Origin: a virus
Lineage: Duplodnaviria; Heunggongvirae; Uroviricota; Caudoviricetes
Strand: one strand, 5' to 3'
Length of the DNA: 37,937 bases
Virus record (IMG/VR): IMGVR_UViG_2585427766_000015
Position numbers and translations under genes: made by a program
Part shown: positions 11,453 to 16,947 of the stretch, one piece after another
Layout of the letters: the number at the start of each line of letters is the position of its first letter
How positions within the stretch are numbered: the stretch's first letter is position 1
The notes under the pieces: generated by a model
Seen by the model: only the letters and a program-made list of their open reading frames with translations
The model's database searches: none
Told to the model about the DNA's origin: nothing

Positions 11453-11818
11453 GTGATGCGTGATATTCAGATGGTTCTGGATCGTTGGGGAGCATGGGCG
11501 GCGAGTGATAGTTCAGGAGTAGATTATTCTCCTATAGCTGCTGGGTTTAAAGGGCTTCTTCCCTATACAAGCAAAACACGTCAGGCTTGTTCAGATAGTG
11601 ATGCATTAATTATTGAAGGTTGTCTTGCACGTCTAAAGCAAAAAAGACCTGATGAGCATTCGCTTCTTGTGGCACATTATTTATACAGAATATCCAAGCG
11701 TAAGATTGCAAAGGCGCGTGGAAAGGATGAGAAACTAATACGCATTGAGATACAGATGGCTGAGGGGTTTATTGATGGATGCCTTTCAATTCTGGATGTT
11801 AAACTTGAAATGGATTAG
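11453..11818 (+). CDS. Putative late-gene antiterminator (phage 82 Q-like family), 121 aa
   Basis: MMRDIQMVLDRWGAWAA ... IAAGFKGL ... resembles the small Q-type antiterminators; sits upstream of the late promoter/terminator region. Confidence 0.55.
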   Translation: MMRDIQMVLDRWGAWAASDSSGVDYSPIAAGFKGLLPYTSKTRQACSDSDALIIEGCLARLKQKRPDEHSLLVAHYLYRISKRKIAKARGKDEKLIRIEIQMAEGFIDGCLSILDVKLEMD

Positions 11819-11823
11819 TGAAA

Positions 11824-11841
11824 CCCCGGCTTAAGCCGGGG
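11824..11841. terminator. GC-rich hairpin (CCCCGGC-TTAA-GCCGGGG) between the convergent Q-like and NYN genes; possible bidirectional terminator
   Basis: 7-bp perfect stem with short T-rich flanks on both strands; the NYN stop codon lies in the loop. Confidence 0.45.
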
Positions 11842-12694
11842 ATGTTTCAGATTGAAGTGTTTTTTTCTTGGGCTCGTTCTTAGATGATTTTGTTTTCTTT
11901 TGACGATTGAGTTTTTTCTCTTTGCGTCTGTCAATATAATCGTCCCACCAATCAGGTTTTACTGTTGGGACGATTCTGCAAATATCAGCAATTGCAACAA
12001 CAATGTTGCTCGATTGCACTCCATCGACGTGCTCTGCCAGTGAGGGAGGAACTTGTTGGTTCATTGGATCGAGGATAAAATCTACACCCTTTATACGGGC
12101 ATGTTTAGCGGCAGGAACGAAATCAGCATCGCCAGCAATCAGGACGATCACATCAACTAGTTTCTCATGAGCAAGGATAGTTATATCCATACCAAGCTTA
12201 ATATCGACGGCTTTTTGTTTATATTCGTAGTAGAAATCGTCGTTAGTTAACTCAGACCATTGAATTTCATTACGTAATAGTTTCTTAAGAGTATGTTCTT
12301 TTATTTGCCAGTTACCGACGTTTGAAAGAATACCCATACGAAGTGCCGTTTTACGATTCTTCCTTAGCTCCTCATGAAGCTTGTTTCGTAAAACATTCGG
12401 AGCATGTGTCTTGAAGTTTTTAGTTGATGGGGTTTTGTTGTCTCCATCAGGCAAAGGATACTTAATCTGTTTATCAAGCGGCGGGCAGTCGTAATAGTAA
12501 ATACGGTAAAGCTCAAGTGGTTCACGGTCAGCGTGAGCACCATGTCGAACCTCTACATGAAATTTAACAATTCGCCAGATTATTTTAACAAGTTGTTGGC
12601 TGTCTAACTCATGCCCAGGGAAATGTTTTCGTAGAAAGTAATCAATCCGACGGATGAAGTAGCCGCCGTCAATCAAGACTGCTGTTTTCTTCAT
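11831..12694 (-). CDS. NYN-domain (PIN-like) putative ribonuclease with Lys-rich C-terminal tail, about 287 aa
   Basis: Conserved acidic motifs of the NYN/LabA fold (LIDGGYF, VDIKLGMD, IAGDADFVPA); start taken at the ATG at 12694 (MKKTAV); the ORF track extends to a GTG at 12706. Confidence 0.8.
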   Translation of the reverse strand: MKKTAVLIDGGYFIRRIDYFLRKHFPGHELDSQQLVKIIWRIVKFHVEVRHGAHADREPLELYRIYYYDCPPLDKQIKYPLPDGDNKTPSTKNFKTHAPNVLRNKLHEELRKNRKTALRMGILSNVGNWQIKEHTLKKLLRNEIQWSELTNDDFYYEYKQKAVDIKLGMDITILAHEKLVDVIVLIAGDADFVPAAKHARIKGVDFILDPMNQQVPPSLAEHVDGVQSSNIVVAIADICRIVPTVKPDWWDDYIDRRKEKKLNRQKKTKSSKNEPKKKTLQSETSPA

Positions 12695-12706
12695 TGAAAA
12701 ACTCAC

Positions 12707-13070
12707 AAAAAAAGCTCAGAACCGTTGAGTAGACCCTAAATATTATCTACGAACAGTGCTGAGCTGGTGACGCAATAATTAACTATTGACATTTGCGTTG
12801 TCAACAAATTTTGCACTGTTTAAATGTAAATTTTTTCTGCTGTCAACATATAGTGTCATCTTTGGCATGTTGACACTATATAAACGCTTACGCGGTCCGC
12901 AAAAATAATTGTATCATGTTAAGAGTGGTTACTTCGACTCCTTCCTTAAAACCGCAGTTGAGCGGTTTTTTTGTACCTGTAAACCTGGTGCAGTACAGTA
13001 AACACGCTGGTGGTCGTGAATACTGGCTTTTTATCTTGCTGGCTTTTTAGACAAGAGTTATTGGTATGTC
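12707..13070. promoter_or_regulatory. Divergent regulatory region: NYN-gene promoter and putative late promoter, with repeated TGTCAACA/TGTTGACA motifs and an 11-bp inverted repeat (ATATAGTGTCA ... TGACACTATAT)
   Basis: Several TTGACA-type hexamers and palindromes read directly; followed by the terminator at 12948-12973. Confidence 0.4.
12948..12973 (+). terminator. Intrinsic terminator (tR'-like) upstream of the late operon
   Basis: AAACCGC-AGTTGA-GCGGTTT hairpin followed by a 7-T run; position analogous to lambda tR', where Q-mediated antitermination acts. Confidence 0.6.
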
Positions 13071-13298
13071 ATGTTAACCAGAAGGGAAAAAGACATGCTA
13101 AAACAGCAAGATATGACAGAAACCGCCGCCGTAGTCCTTCATTTCCTACCTGCTGACAAGTGGGTAACGCCACGCATGATGACGAGAACTACCGGAGTAA
13201 GCGAAGCCCGGTGCCAGTTAATACTGACTCAGTTAGTTCTGGCGGGTCTGGCGAAGGATAACGGCGGGTATGGGAATAAATTCAGACGCTGCCAGTAA
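13071..13298 (+). CDS. Small putative winged-helix DNA-binding protein (PapI/FaeA-like?), 67-75 aa
   Basis: Pattern resembles small winged-helix regulators (TGVSEARCQLILTQLVLAGLA); alternative ATG at 13095 has a better Shine-Dalgarno. Assignment tentative. Confidence 0.4.
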   Translation: MLTRREKDMLKQQDMTETAAVVLHFLPADKWVTPRMMTRTTGVSEARCQLILTQLVLAGLAKDNGGYGNKFRRCQ

Positions 13299-13448
13299 TG
13301 GCGGTTTCCTGCTGTGAAAATGGGCGGCTGGTGGGTGTTGGTAGCACCTGCCAGCCATTCGCTCATGCTTACTGGTCACAAGCGAACCACGGCCCACTGC
13401 TTTAGCGCAAAAGCAGAGTGAGCCTACCAGAGTTACGCTTACTGATCC

Positions 13449-14501
13449 ATGAAAAATACTGTAAAAATAAACAGTGTTGATTTAATCAACGCTGATTGCC
13501 TGCATTTTATTCAGTCCCTGCCTGATGATTCCATTGACCTGATTGTTACCGATCCGCCGTACTTCAAGGTGAAACCCAACGGCTGGGACAATCAGTGGAA
13601 AGGGGACGAAGATTACCTTAAGTGGCTGGACCACTGTCTGGCCCAGTTCTGGCGGGGGTTAAAACCTGCCGGAAGCCTTTACCTGTTCTGTGGGCATCGC
13701 CTGGCATCTGATATTGAGATCATGATGCGTGAACGTTTCAACGTGCTTAACCATATCATCTGGGCGAAGCCGTCCGGACGTTGGAATGGGTGTAATAAAG
13801 AAAGTCTGCGCGCATATTTTCCTGCCACAGAGCGCGTTCTGTTTGCTGAACATTACCAGGGGCCATATCGCGGCAAAAGTGACGGCTATGCGGCAAAAGA
13901 AAGGGAACTCAAACAGCACATAATGGCACCGCTGATATCGTATTTCAGGGATGCTCGTGCCGAACTGGGTATAACGGCAAAACAAATTGCCGAAGCCACA
14001 GGTAAGAAAAATATGGTTTCCCACTGGTTTGGTGCCAGTCAGTGGCAGTTGCCGAATGAGGCTGACTATCGGAAGTTACAGGCACTGTTTTCCCGTATAG
14101 CGGCAGAGAAGTTTCAGGAACAACAACTGGAACAACCACACCACCAGCTGGTGGCATCTTATGATTCACTGAATCGCAAATATTCTGAATTGCTGGATGA
14201 GTTTAAATCTCTCCGGCGCTATTTCTCCGTATCAGTCTCCGTGCCTTATACCGATGTCTGGACGCATAAGCCCGTTCAGTTCTACCCGGGTAAACATCCG
14301 TGCGAGAAACCGGCGGATATGCTCCGGCAAATAATCAATGCCAGTAGTCGACCTGGTGATCTGGTTGCTGATTTCTTTATGGGATCCGGTTCCACAATAA
14401 AAGCAGCAATGGCGCTGGGGCGTCGGGCGTTAGGTGTTGAACTTGAGTCAGAGCGGTTTAATCAGACGGTGAAAGAGGTAAGTGAACTGGTGGGGAAATA
14501 A
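13449..14501 (+). CDS. DNA methyltransferase (N6-adenine/N4-cytosine type, beta-class), 350 aa
   Basis: N-terminal DPPY motif (DLIVTDPPYF) and C-terminal AdoMet-binding FxGxG (FFMGSGST). Confidence 0.85.
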   Translation: MKNTVKINSVDLINADCLHFIQSLPDDSIDLIVTDPPYFKVKPNGWDNQWKGDEDYLKWLDHCLAQFWRGLKPAGSLYLFCGHRLASDIEIMMRERFNVLNHIIWAKPSGRWNGCNKESLRAYFPATERVLFAEHYQGPYRGKSDGYAAKERELKQHIMAPLISYFRDARAELGITAKQIAEATGKKNMVSHWFGASQWQLPNEADYRKLQALFSRIAAEKFQEQQLEQPHHQLVASYDSLNRKYSELLDEFKSLRRYFSVSVSVPYTDVWTHKPVQFYPGKHPCEKPADMLRQIINASSRPGDLVADFFMGSGSTIKAAMALGRRALGVELESERFNQTVKEVSELVGK

Positions 14502-14577
14502 TTCTGGTGGCCACGTTGCGTGGCCTTTTTATTTCCAACACAGCACCCGCAAATATCGCGAGGTGAGAGATGACGAA

Positions 14578-14904
14578 ATGCCTCATAACCCAAATACCTG
14601 GCTGGACTTGGTCCAGAGCTGGTGGCGTGGAGACACACCGCTGGGTGCAGTGATTATGTCGATCGTTATGGCTGGTTTGCGCATCGCCTATTTTGGCGGT
14701 GGTGGGGGCTGGAAACGAAAAACACTCGAAATTCTACTCTGTGGCGCTCTGACGCTGACTTTTGCATCCGCTCTTGAGTATGTCGGATGGCCTAAATCAC
14801 TTTCTGTTGCCATTGGTGGTGGTGTTGGGCTGATCGGTGTCGATGCTATTCGTGGGGCAGCAATGCGAGTAATCGGTAACAAATTTGGTAGCTCGAAGGA
14901 GTAA
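14578..14904 (+). CDS. Holin (lambda S-like family), about 108 aa
   Basis: Hydrophobic helices with Gly-rich segments and charged C-terminus; immediately precedes the endolysin; start taken at the ATG at 14578. Confidence 0.7.
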   Translation: MPHNPNTWLDLVQSWWRGDTPLGAVIMSIVMAGLRIAYFGGGGGWKRKTLEILLCGALTLTFASALEYVGWPKSLSVAIGGGVGLIGVDAIRGAAMRVIGNKFGSSKE

Positions 14905-14907
14905 TTT

Positions 14908-15384
14908 ATGCAGGCACTAAATTCCCAGCGTAAAGCTTTCCTTGATATGGTGGCATGGTCAGAAGGAACGGATAACGGGCGACAACCGACACGTAACCAC
15001 GGTTATGACGTTATTGTTGGTGGTGAACTGTTTACTGATTACTCCGATCATCCTCGCAAACTTGTCACGCTAAACTCCAAACTCAAATCAACAGCCGCCG
15101 GACGTTACCAGCTTCTTTCACGTTGGTGGGATGCTTACCGTAAACAGCTTGGTTTGAAAGACTTCTCCCCCAAAAGCCAGGACGCTGTGGCATTGCAGCA
15201 GATTAAAGAACGTGGCGCTTTACCGATGATTGATCGTGGTGATATTCGTCAGGCTATCGACCGTTGCAGCAATATATGGGCTTCATTACCCGGTGCAGGT
15301 TACGGTCAGTATGAACATAAAATCGGTGACCTGATTGCCCGATTTAAAGAGGCTGGTGGGGTGGTAAATGAAGTTGAGTTATAA
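14908..15384 (+). CDS. Endolysin, lambda R-type lytic transglycosylase, 158 aa
   Basis: Near-identical by recollection to lambda R (NQRKAFLDM(V/L)AWSEGTDNGRQ ... YDVIVGGELFTDYSDHPRKLVTLN ...). Confidence 0.92.
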   Translation: MQALNSQRKAFLDMVAWSEGTDNGRQPTRNHGYDVIVGGELFTDYSDHPRKLVTLNSKLKSTAAGRYQLLSRWWDAYRKQLGLKDFSPKSQDAVALQQIKERGALPMIDRGDIRQAIDRCSNIWASLPGAGYGQYEHKIGDLIARFKEAGGVVNEVEL

Positions 15385-15760
15385 GCTGACTATCTCTGCT
15401 TTCTTCTTTACTGTTATTGGCTCTTTCATCTGGTCAGCGAATCACTACTACAGCAAATATCAGCACGAAAAGAAACGTGCTGATGAGGCTGTACAAAATG
15501 CCAAATCGGCAACTGCCATTACCAATAACGTCCTGCAATCACTGCAAATCGTCAATACAGTACTGGAGGCTAACCAGCATGCAAAACAGCAGATCGCACT
15601 GGAGTCACAGAGAACCCAGGAAGATATCAAAATGGCTGTTGCGGATGATGATTGTGCTTCACGTGCTGTGCCTGCTGCCGCTGCTGACCGGTTGCGGAAG
15701 TACGCGGACAGTTTACGTGAGCGTTCCGGTGGCACCACTGCCACCCAGCCTGACTTCTGA
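15368..15760 (+). CDS. Rz-like inner-membrane spanin (i-spanin), 130 aa
   Basis: N-terminal transmembrane helix, coiled-coil periplasmic region, position after the endolysin, overlapping Rz1 frame. Confidence 0.7.
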   Translation: MKLSYKLTISAFFFTVIGSFIWSANHYYSKYQHEKKRADEAVQNAKSATAITNNVLQSLQIVNTVLEANQHAKQQIALESQRTQEDIKMAVADDDCASRAVPAAAADRLRKYADSLRERSGGTTATQPDF

Positions 15761-15923: not shown

Positions 15924-16550
15924 TCAGTTGTCAAATGAATATACGTTAAAGGTATATGTCGACATAATTTCACCAAGTACCTCAATACATACACTTTTTT
16001 TATGAAAATTACTGGGAAATGAACTTAGCTCCTCAAGACATTGCACATAAGTGCTGATATCACTTGCATCACGTTCAAGGAATTTCACTTGACCAAAAGA
16101 AGGAGTTTTAATCTTGGTTCTTTGCTGGATTATATGGATAAAGTGTGTAGTTGGTGAAACTATTACTCTTGAAATATCGGAAATGATGTCTTCTTGAACT
16201 TGCCGATAAAGTAAATCCTTTGGGTAATGGTGTTTAATCTCGATGGTTGCAACATTGCCATTATGTTCAGACGTTAATATCGACTGGTTATAAAGTGATA
16301 TGTCAACAGCGCCGATACCGAGTTTTGGATGCTCACTTAAAGCAGTTAGTGTGCTGATTTGATTGAGTATAACAACTAACTCATCACGTATTTGTGTTTC
16401 ATGTTTGCGATTGTAGAAGTAGCCATTCAGTTCATTTAACTTTTTATGCATCCTATCGTGACTAATTGCTTCGATCAGTAAATCCTGAATCATACTTTTC
16501 TCTAGATAATCCGAACGGTTGTAAGTGACAGTATTGTGCTGGCATGTCAT
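15924..16550 (-). CDS. Hypothetical protein, 208 aa (possibly 189 aa from internal ATG), AT-rich; candidate nuclease-like effector
   Basis: Downstream gene of an antisense two-gene cassette; GAVDIS ... (17 aa) ... ATIEIKHHY has the spacing of a PD-(D/E)xK core (inference only). Confidence 0.6.
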   Translation of the reverse strand: MTCQHNTVTYNRSDYLEKSMIQDLLIEAISHDRMHKKLNELNGYFYNRKHETQIRDELVVILNQISTLTALSEHPKLGIGAVDISLYNQSILTSEHNGNVATIEIKHHYPKDLLYRQVQEDIISDISRVIVSPTTHFIHIIQQRTKIKTPSFGQVKFLERDASDISTYVQCLEELSSFPSNFHKKSVCIEVLGEIMSTYTFNVYSFDN

Positions 16551-16593: not shown

Positions 16594-16947
16594 TCATCGA
16601 TAGAAAAACTTTACAGCCCACTCGTAAACAGCTTTGTAAATCGGTTCATGGTAAATACTATCGATACTATTCAGATGTGCGATCATCGCCTCCACAGTTG
16701 TAGTGGTTGTTTCTAATATTTCGATTATTGCAGGGCGGTCATCATCTTCATCGAAGTATTCGAACAGCAGTACAGGTTTACCATGCAATTCAGCATCTGA
16801 GACTCTAAGGTTACAACTACCGCTCAACTCAAAGTGAATTTTGTAATTACCTTCTACAGAATGGCCTACGGGGAAAAAGTATAGGGTGTCATCTTTGTTC
16901 AAAAGCCATTCCCATTCATAACTATTCATTTGTGAACTCCTGTTCAT
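16594..16947 (-). CDS. Hypothetical acidic protein, 117 aa, AT-rich; upstream gene of the antisense cassette
   Basis: ORF with acidic cluster (EYFDEDDDRPAIIEILETTTTT); 43-bp gap to the downstream ORF suggests an operon. Confidence 0.6.
   Translation of the reverse strand: MNRSSQMNSYEWEWLLNKDDTLYFFPVGHSVEGNYKIHFELSGSCNLRVSDAELHGKPVLLFEYFDEDDDRPAIIEILETTTTTVEAMIAHLNSIDSIYHEPIYKAVYEWAVKFFYR

Follow-up and report, generated by a model that had tools for sequence, protein, structure and literature searches.

In phage Mu, the small regulator gene com lies just upstream of the gene for a toxic late adenine-modifying enzyme, Mom, and translation hinges on the structure of the leader RNA. The adenine methyltransferase M.EcoGII is a widely used laboratory tool and, to our knowledge, the control of its natural gene has not been studied. 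Here, we analyse a 37,937-nt stretch of Caudoviricetes DNA (IMG/VR record IMGVR_UViG_2585427766_000015; hereafter the window, at its full length) in which a small winged-helix gene, a structured non-coding leader and a methyltransferase gene related to M.EcoGII follow each other. Established points are the family to which the enzyme belongs, the place of the cassette behind terminators as the first of the late genes, its modular build and the conserved, structured leader. We lean towards reading the locus as a modular cargo cassette heading the late operon of a lambdoid prophage, with a silent anti-restriction enzyme restrained by its leader and the small gene as a separate module.

M.EcoGII was described from a prophage of E. 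coli O104:H4 as a sequence-non-specific N6-adenine methyltransferase acting on any adenine (PMC5778455). The enzyme is active in vivo and in vitro when cloned alone; the lysogen does not express it, and constitutive expression is deleterious (PMC5778455). Homologues are silent in methylomes of Shiga toxin-producing E. coli (STEC) lysogens (PMC6602927). The cassette of the window recurs at 90-99% DNA identity in phage SfV (orf47-orf48) and as equivalents in mEp460, cdtI, Ayreon, 1720a-02 and Stx2c phages, at the corresponding position between Q/tR' and the lysis genes. The upstream Q types and late promoters differ between the SfV-type phages and the window, and homology to phages with other Q types begins at the tR'-like terminator (12948). 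A preliminary description of the window, made from the letters of the sequence, had called the pairing of a small gene with a methyltransferase unusual. The pairing is instead among the commonest E. coli prophage arrangements, and of 5426 complete E. coli genomes, 1474 carry the 1.57-kb cassette (1122 with at least 80% coverage). Neither the methyltransferase gene nor the pairing is out of the ordinary, and both have been annotated before in known phages. The novelty lies in two non-coding elements recognised here, the conserved structured leader and a motif linked to the small gene, which provide leads on the control of a toxic non-specific methyltransferase.

An orphan methyltransferase of the M.EcoGII family

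The cassette consists of three parts:

13095-13298 (+): gene of a small winged-helix protein, 67 aa, PHROG 331
13316-13448 (+): leader L, ~130 nt, structured and non-coding, from covariation and a covariance model
13449-14501 (+): orphan methyltransferase gene, 350 aa, M.EcoGII family, beta-class N6-adenine

Both open reading frames (ORFs) lie on the + strand, where the preliminary description had placed them. Residues 29-341 of the methyltransferase matched the Pfam family N6_N4_Mtase (PF01555; E=3.2e-41), scoring 142.1 bits where the cut-off is 26.7. The DPPY motif (motif IV, residues 35-38) is N-terminal to FxGxG (motif I; DFFMGSGS at ~308-315), and this order defines the beta class. The early assignment as a beta-class DPPY amino-methyltransferase holds on both counts. 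Full-length BLASTP against M.EcoGII gave 282 identical residues out of 349 (81%), with 2 gap positions and no domain missing; the M.EcoGII sequence was taken from the machine-read PDF of the PMC11551740 supplement and carries a few transcription errors. The enzyme aligns end to end with M.EcoGII/M.EcoGI of E. coli O104:H4 C227-11 (349 aa; REBASE; PMC5778455), from which 19% of its residues differ. The two proteins have in common the beta-class order, a central helix-turn-helix (HTH) target-recognition region, a prophage-borne gene and the orphan state. A weak HTH_3 match at residues 167-193 of the window protein fits the four-helix bundle described for residues 160-237 of M.EcoGII (PMC11551740). 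Several residues of the reconstructed ancestor Anc291, judged by eye, equal those of the window protein and differ from M.EcoGII.

PADLOC matched the protein to methyltransferase models alone (MTase_II, E=4e-151). No endonuclease gene was found within the cassette, where the neighbours of the methyltransferase are the small gene and a holin gene, so the enzyme is an orphan as first proposed. By its sequence, the enzyme is a member of a known and characterised family. The preliminary description had envisaged a defined target motif; given the 81% identity to the non-specific M.EcoGII, the target of the window enzyme is most likely simply A. The enzyme probably also methylates RNA, as the substrates of M.EcoGII include RNA and DNA:RNA hybrids (PMC5778455). 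Such a range of substrates, together with the neighbourhood of the cassette and stx2 in phage 1720a-02, might suggest that the enzyme mainly reprogrammes host or phage late through RNA or DNA methylation, or marks DNA for packaging. We regard this as very unlikely. The activity of M.EcoGII on RNA is ~100-fold below that on DNA (PMC11551740 Table S3), and late timing and non-specificity best fit the protection of progeny DNA.

Position at the head of the late operon

The cassette is framed by the following features:

11453-11818 (+): Q antiterminator gene (Pfam Phage_antitermQ PF06530, E=8.9e-52)
12948-12975 (+): tR'-like intrinsic terminator, inverted repeat AAAACCGC/GCGGTTTT (12948-12969) with an 8-bp stem and a 6-nt loop, then a T-run
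13006-13037 (+): second terminator-like hairpin (13006-13027) and T-run, from a consensus scan
14509-14535 (+): strong intrinsic terminator in the methyltransferase/holin gap (stem-loop 14509-14525), 7-bp stem with 6 GC pairs, T-run
14578-15760 (+): lysis cassette with holin (Pfam Phage_holin_3_1), endolysin-position ORF and Rz-like ORF

The order of terminator, small ORF, methyltransferase and lysis genes given in the preliminary description was recovered on the + strand, and the two genes head the late operon behind the tR'-like terminators. A terminator between the methyltransferase and the lysis genes is also annotated in SfV and Ayreon. Morons are extra prophage gene units, classically with their own promoter and terminator. 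With terminators on both sides, the methyltransferase module resembles a moron inserted into the late operon.

The position of the methyltransferase downstream of the tR' terminators suggests that the cassette would not be transcribed in the lysogen. In favour of this reading, promoter-like sites in the consensus scan were no more frequent than chance. After induction, the Q antiterminator would drive read-through of the terminators gating the cassette, with Q-modified RNA polymerase passing tR' and the internal terminators. The enzyme would then methylate adenines across replicating phage DNA before packaging. Such methylation would protect the progeny against many adenine-sensitive restriction systems. 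An anti-restriction role, as already put forward in the preliminary description, is likely from the family biochemistry and the gene position. Given the toxicity of the enzyme, output is probably restrained at a second level, where the folded leader and a weak initiation region without a canonical Shine-Dalgarno (SD) sequence would limit or time translation.

A conserved structured leader

The leader contains the following elements:

13321-13325/13392-13396 (+): P0, 5-bp closing stem (alignment structure; RNAalifold)
13326-13356 (+): hairpin P1, 12 bp (alignment structure; RNAalifold)
13358-13386 (+): hairpin P2 (alignment structure)
13397-13416 (+): hairpin P3 (alignment structure; RNAalifold)
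13417-13423/13437-13443 (+): possible stem P4, 87% pairable
13443-13447 (+): conserved UGAUC just 5' of the methyltransferase AUG

Leaders were compared across 53 distinct sequences, which span Escherichia to Proteus and Morganella and share a mean column identity of 81%. The leader is more conserved than the synonymous sites of the flanking gene. In an alignment not fitted to the structure, 15 pairs changed on both sides; slid controls gave 3-5 such pairs and shuffled alignments 7.3 +/- 1.2, with 15 reached in 0 of 500 shuffles. RNAalifold independently recovered P0, P1 and P3, and the possible P4 showed no significant covariation. On either strand, the leader of the window folds better than when shuffled, with z-scores of -3.9 (+) and -2.6 (-). 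A covariance model (R1) matched once per locus and always abutted the methyltransferase start, including at 14 of the 17 methyltransferase loci without the small gene. Rfam 15 returned nothing at E<=1 over 12600-14700 and nothing credible at E<=10 over 13280-13470.

The conservation extends to the initiation region. Nucleotide constraint runs ~30 nt into the coding region, and third-codon positions are 86% conserved in codons 1-12 vs 59% further on. The methyltransferase start has no canonical SD sequence; UGAUC, 1 nt 5' of the AUG, could pair with GAUCA of the 16S rRNA 3' tail. In all likelihood, the leader sets the level of translation or gates it. The apex of P2 (GRUCA) and the pre-AUG UGAUC could form a pseudoknot, with 95.5% pairability, and the invariance of both sequences makes this evidence neither for nor against such a pairing.

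A direct repeat, GCTTACTGGTC (13367-13377) and GCTTACTGATC (13437-13447), links the P2 loop with the sequence right before the methyltransferase AUG. Proteus loci carry an analogous repeat of different sequence (GTTCTGGTAGATC and GTTCTCCTGATC), and in locus L041 GATC was lost jointly from both copies. The leader also has an ORF on the minus strand (MSEWLAG...THQPPI), which we discarded because 1-nt indels among the loci disrupt its frame.

The hairpins differ in the strand that they favour. P1 and the possible P4 contain G.U pairs when read as + strand. For P2, the - strand gives the more stable hairpin in 53 of 53 sequences (-10.8 vs -6.0 kcal/mol), and its non-Watson-Crick pairs on the + strand are A.C (120) far more than G.U (4), with few independent events behind these counts. 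The A.C pairs of the + strand are G.U pairs on the - strand. This bias makes a minus-strand antisense RNA from the leader region a live alternative, in which leaky methyltransferase mRNA would be silenced in lysogens in the style of type I toxin-antitoxin systems. The folding of the minus strand beyond its shuffles, the toxicity of the enzyme (PMC5778455) and the constraint reaching into the coding region are consistent with such an RNA. However, neither the consensus scan nor a reading of the sequence gave a convincing minus-strand promoter or terminator, and P1 and P4 favour the + strand. Overall, we judge antisense silencing to be improbable, and a leader restraining translation is the reading that we prefer.

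The small winged-helix gene and element U

Two further elements accompany the small gene:

13036-13060 (+): element U, TTGCTG-N12-AGAGYTA with fixed spacing, ~35 nt 5' of the small-gene start codon
13287-13316 (+): terminator-like hairpin over the small-gene stop codon with a weak T-run, from the sequence and alignments of homologous loci

The preliminary description had left the length of the small ORF at 67-75 aa. The start at ATG 13095 (67 aa) stands, as homologues all begin with MLKQQDMTE and an AGG-type SD ~8 nt 5' of this ATG is conserved. The longer version falls away, since ATG 13071 (75 aa) is not conserved. The ratio of non-synonymous to synonymous substitution rates (dN/dS) was ~0.15 against Mangrovibacter homologues, indicating purifying selection. 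The family diverges to ~27% identity and keeps its hydrophobic winged-helix pattern, with a nearly invariant third helix (CQLILTQL). This pattern of divergence and the low dN/dS mark the small ORF as a real protein-coding gene. The AlphaFold2 model has a pLDDT of 90.5 and the topology H1-b-H2-H3-wing (b-hairpin), so that the predicted structure confirms the winged-helix fold. The earlier reading of a small protein with this fold is upheld.

The family is narrow. A profile search of 1.8 billion representatives returned just 97 proteins and no tie to a characterised family. Among 39 family members, Pfam matches included DprA_WH (19/39) and TrmB (19/39), and some variants of the gene are annotated as 'TrmB family transcriptional regulator'. 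The scan of the window protein itself gave DnaD_N and nothing else. Structural matches place the fold near the RNA-hairpin-binding SelB, Zalpha domains and also DNA-binding regulators. A Zalpha-like role was considered and appears improbable: the resemblance in fold is a generic one, and the Asn/Tyr pattern of Zalpha domains is missing from helix 3 (RCQLILTQL).

The preliminary description had tentatively labelled the protein PapI/FaeA-like, which would imply a co-regulator reading the methylation state of GATC. The small protein is similar to PapI in size and is likewise a stand-alone winged helix, hhalign pairs H1-H3 with PapI at 66.6% probability, and GATC sites are conserved in the leader. 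Yet the identity to PapI is 18%, and the PapI/FaeA family PF04703 is absent from the 25 listed of the 29 Pfam families matched by the 39 members as well as from the scan of the window protein. The family profile misses PapI (2HTJ) in the PDB at E<=10, and PapI is not in the top structural matches. The pre-AUG GATC might equally be read as a weak extended SD (UGAUC). A PapI-type reader is therefore highly improbable. Most likely, the small protein is a late nucleic-acid-binding protein targeting the adjacent conserved element, and neither a PapI-type methylation reader nor an enzyme subunit.

Element U and the small gene occur strictly together. One copy per locus is present in every listed small-gene locus, very divergent ones included, and none in the listed loci without the small gene; 0 are expected by chance in the window. 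Two ideas about this region were rejected. For a sigma-70 or sigma-54 promoter, element U has neither the right spacing nor a fitting -10 region, and the scan reported no + strand promoter there. A long-range pairing of TATCTTGCTG (13032-13041) with CAGCAAGATA (small-gene codons 4-7) is not supported by covariation, because CTTGCTG is invariant where the codons change (L009 and the Xenorhabdus group).

The hairpin and T-run at the stop codon are far stronger in other cassette variants than in the window. With a terminator-like hairpin of its own, the small gene looks like a self-contained moron, and it would represent a separate, widespread module with its own upstream motif. The small protein is also mosaic (e.g. 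P0052 and P0054), with central types VLHFLPADKW... and VFNELS..EPATVGEIA... combined with two C-terminal wing types. Such combinations point to recombination inside the 200-nt gene. In the SfV-type phages, two main variants of the central region occur and recombine.

Two genes that usually travel together

Escherichia loci share the synteny Q-(small gene)-leader-methyltransferase-lysis genes with loci as far away as Proteus, Morganella and Xenorhabdus. The small gene is present at 59 of 80 methyltransferase loci taken from different species and absent from 17 that have ample upstream DNA (59/76). The spacer between the two genes is 146-150 nt in most loci. Divergent homologues of the small protein (28-43% identity) again have an N6_N4 methyltransferase downstream, mostly at a distance of ~147-150 nt (230 nt in L175). 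E. coli Nissle 1917 also carries the triad of small gene, leader and methyltransferase. In phage 1720a-02, Q precedes the triad (L182, 2514-4843), whose methyltransferase has 93% identity to M.EcoGII, and stx2A comes directly after. The toxin and the methyltransferase would thus share a Q-dependent late transcript. A scan of viral contigs with the methyltransferase recovered 98-100% identical copies alone and no added diversity.

The small gene also occurs beside an AraC-like gene instead of the methyltransferase in 725 E. coli genomes. The replacement junction lies within the leader just past P1, and the 5' strand of P0 and P1 remain beside the small gene. The retention of P1 is the best hint of a possible interaction between the small protein and the leader. 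The small protein might then be a dedicated controller of the methyltransferase, comparable to Com of Mu com-mom or to C proteins, that turns on or holds back translation or transcription of the toxic enzyme by binding the leader (e.g. P1) or DNA close by. The position directly 5' of the methyltransferase in most of the species-level loci and in relatives at 28-39% identity, the near-constant spacer, a structured leader ahead of a start without canonical SD, and a fold resembling both RNA-hairpin-binding and DNA-binding proteins would fit such a controller. However, 14 loci have the methyltransferase and full leader without the small gene, and the 725 genomes have the small gene without the methyltransferase. 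M.EcoGII was active when cloned alone (PMC5778455), and the terminator-like hairpin of the small gene suggests an independent module. The occurrence of each gene without the other and the activity of M.EcoGII alone weaken a controller-like role, which we consider rather unlikely. We are similarly doubtful of a broader proposal, namely that the leader is an undescribed cis-regulatory RNA or sense/antisense pair gating the toxic methyltransferase, with the PHROG 331 protein as its partner in a Com/mom-like switch built of unrelated parts.

Several points weigh against the favoured reading of a silent, leader-restrained enzyme beside an independent small gene. An identity of 81% is no proof that the window allele is non-specific, likely as this is, and its silence in the lysogen is drawn from relatives. 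The consensus scan did not pinpoint the late promoter or the Q-binding site. In Photorhabdus and Xenorhabdus the leader is different and shorter, with a P1-like hairpin as the one part kept, and the acting strand of the leader is ambiguous. The frequent adjacency of the two genes and their constant ~150-nt spacer would also fit a functional partnership. Nevertheless, the two genes look like separate modules that usually travel together, because the pairing is not obligatory and M.EcoGII is active when cloned alone.

Neighbouring features of the window

Two ORFs of the lysis cassette have syntenic counterparts in SfV:

14908-15384 (+): endolysin-position ORF, 158 aa, SfV syntenic gene annotated as endolysin
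15368-15760 (+): Rz-like ORF, SfV syntenic gene annotated as spanin

The presumed late-promoter/Q-binding region contains a cluster of inverted repeats (12786-12884). The cluster includes 8-nt perfect arms, TGTCAACA/TGTTGACA (12799-12806 with 12868-12875), and an 11-nt perfect pair, ATATAGTGTCA/TGACACTATAT (12848-12858 / 12871-12881). No sigma-70 promoter on the + strand of 12786-12884 emerged from the consensus scan. Between Q and this region lies a reverse-oriented gene of 291 aa with an NYN domain (predicted RNase; 11831-12706, -). The gene matches PHROG 5783, with weak PADLOC matches to HEC-09 and NYN nuclease (E ~5e-4), and other phages have different reverse-oriented genes at this position. 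A sub-threshold Rfam match to the Enterobacterial sRNA STnc130 (12940-13076, -; 25.5 bits vs a gathering score of 55, E=0.48) runs antisense over the tR' region and is probably due to chance. Right after the lysis cassette, two ORFs on the - strand (15924-16550, 208 aa; 16594-16947, 117 aa) may represent another moron; their Pfam matches were below cut-offs (E ~0.03-0.04) and PADLOC gave no match. A tRNA-Thr (CGU) gene close to the window start (1369-1444, +) may be the attachment-site tRNA of the prophage.

Comparison with other small-regulator systems

Roughly one in four complete E. coli genomes carries the cassette, and at least one Shiga-toxin phage has it directly 5' of stx2. Knowing what keeps a toxic, non-specific methyltransferase in check until lysis, and what the small protein does, bears on phage anti-restriction and host range. 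The same knowledge bears on the reading of methylomes from induced cultures and on the design of late-operon expression in lambdoid phages.

Known systems share individual traits with the cassette. PapI/FaeA proteins (PF04703) are stand-alone winged helices of ~70 aa, as is the small protein here, with no specific sequence or structural affinity between them. C proteins of type II restriction-modification systems are likewise encoded by a small DNA-binding gene 5' of a modification or restriction gene. However, C proteins are of the Xre-type helix-turn-helix and act with C-boxes, whereas the window cassette is without an endonuclease and no palindromic operator was identified. Com of phage Mu is a zinc finger in contrast to the winged helix here, and Mom is no S-adenosylmethionine (SAM) methyltransferase. 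The gene pair of the window is also separable, unlike com-mom. The likeness to com-mom is one of apparent working: phage Mu com-mom provides a works-like analogy to the small gene, leader and methyltransferase described here.

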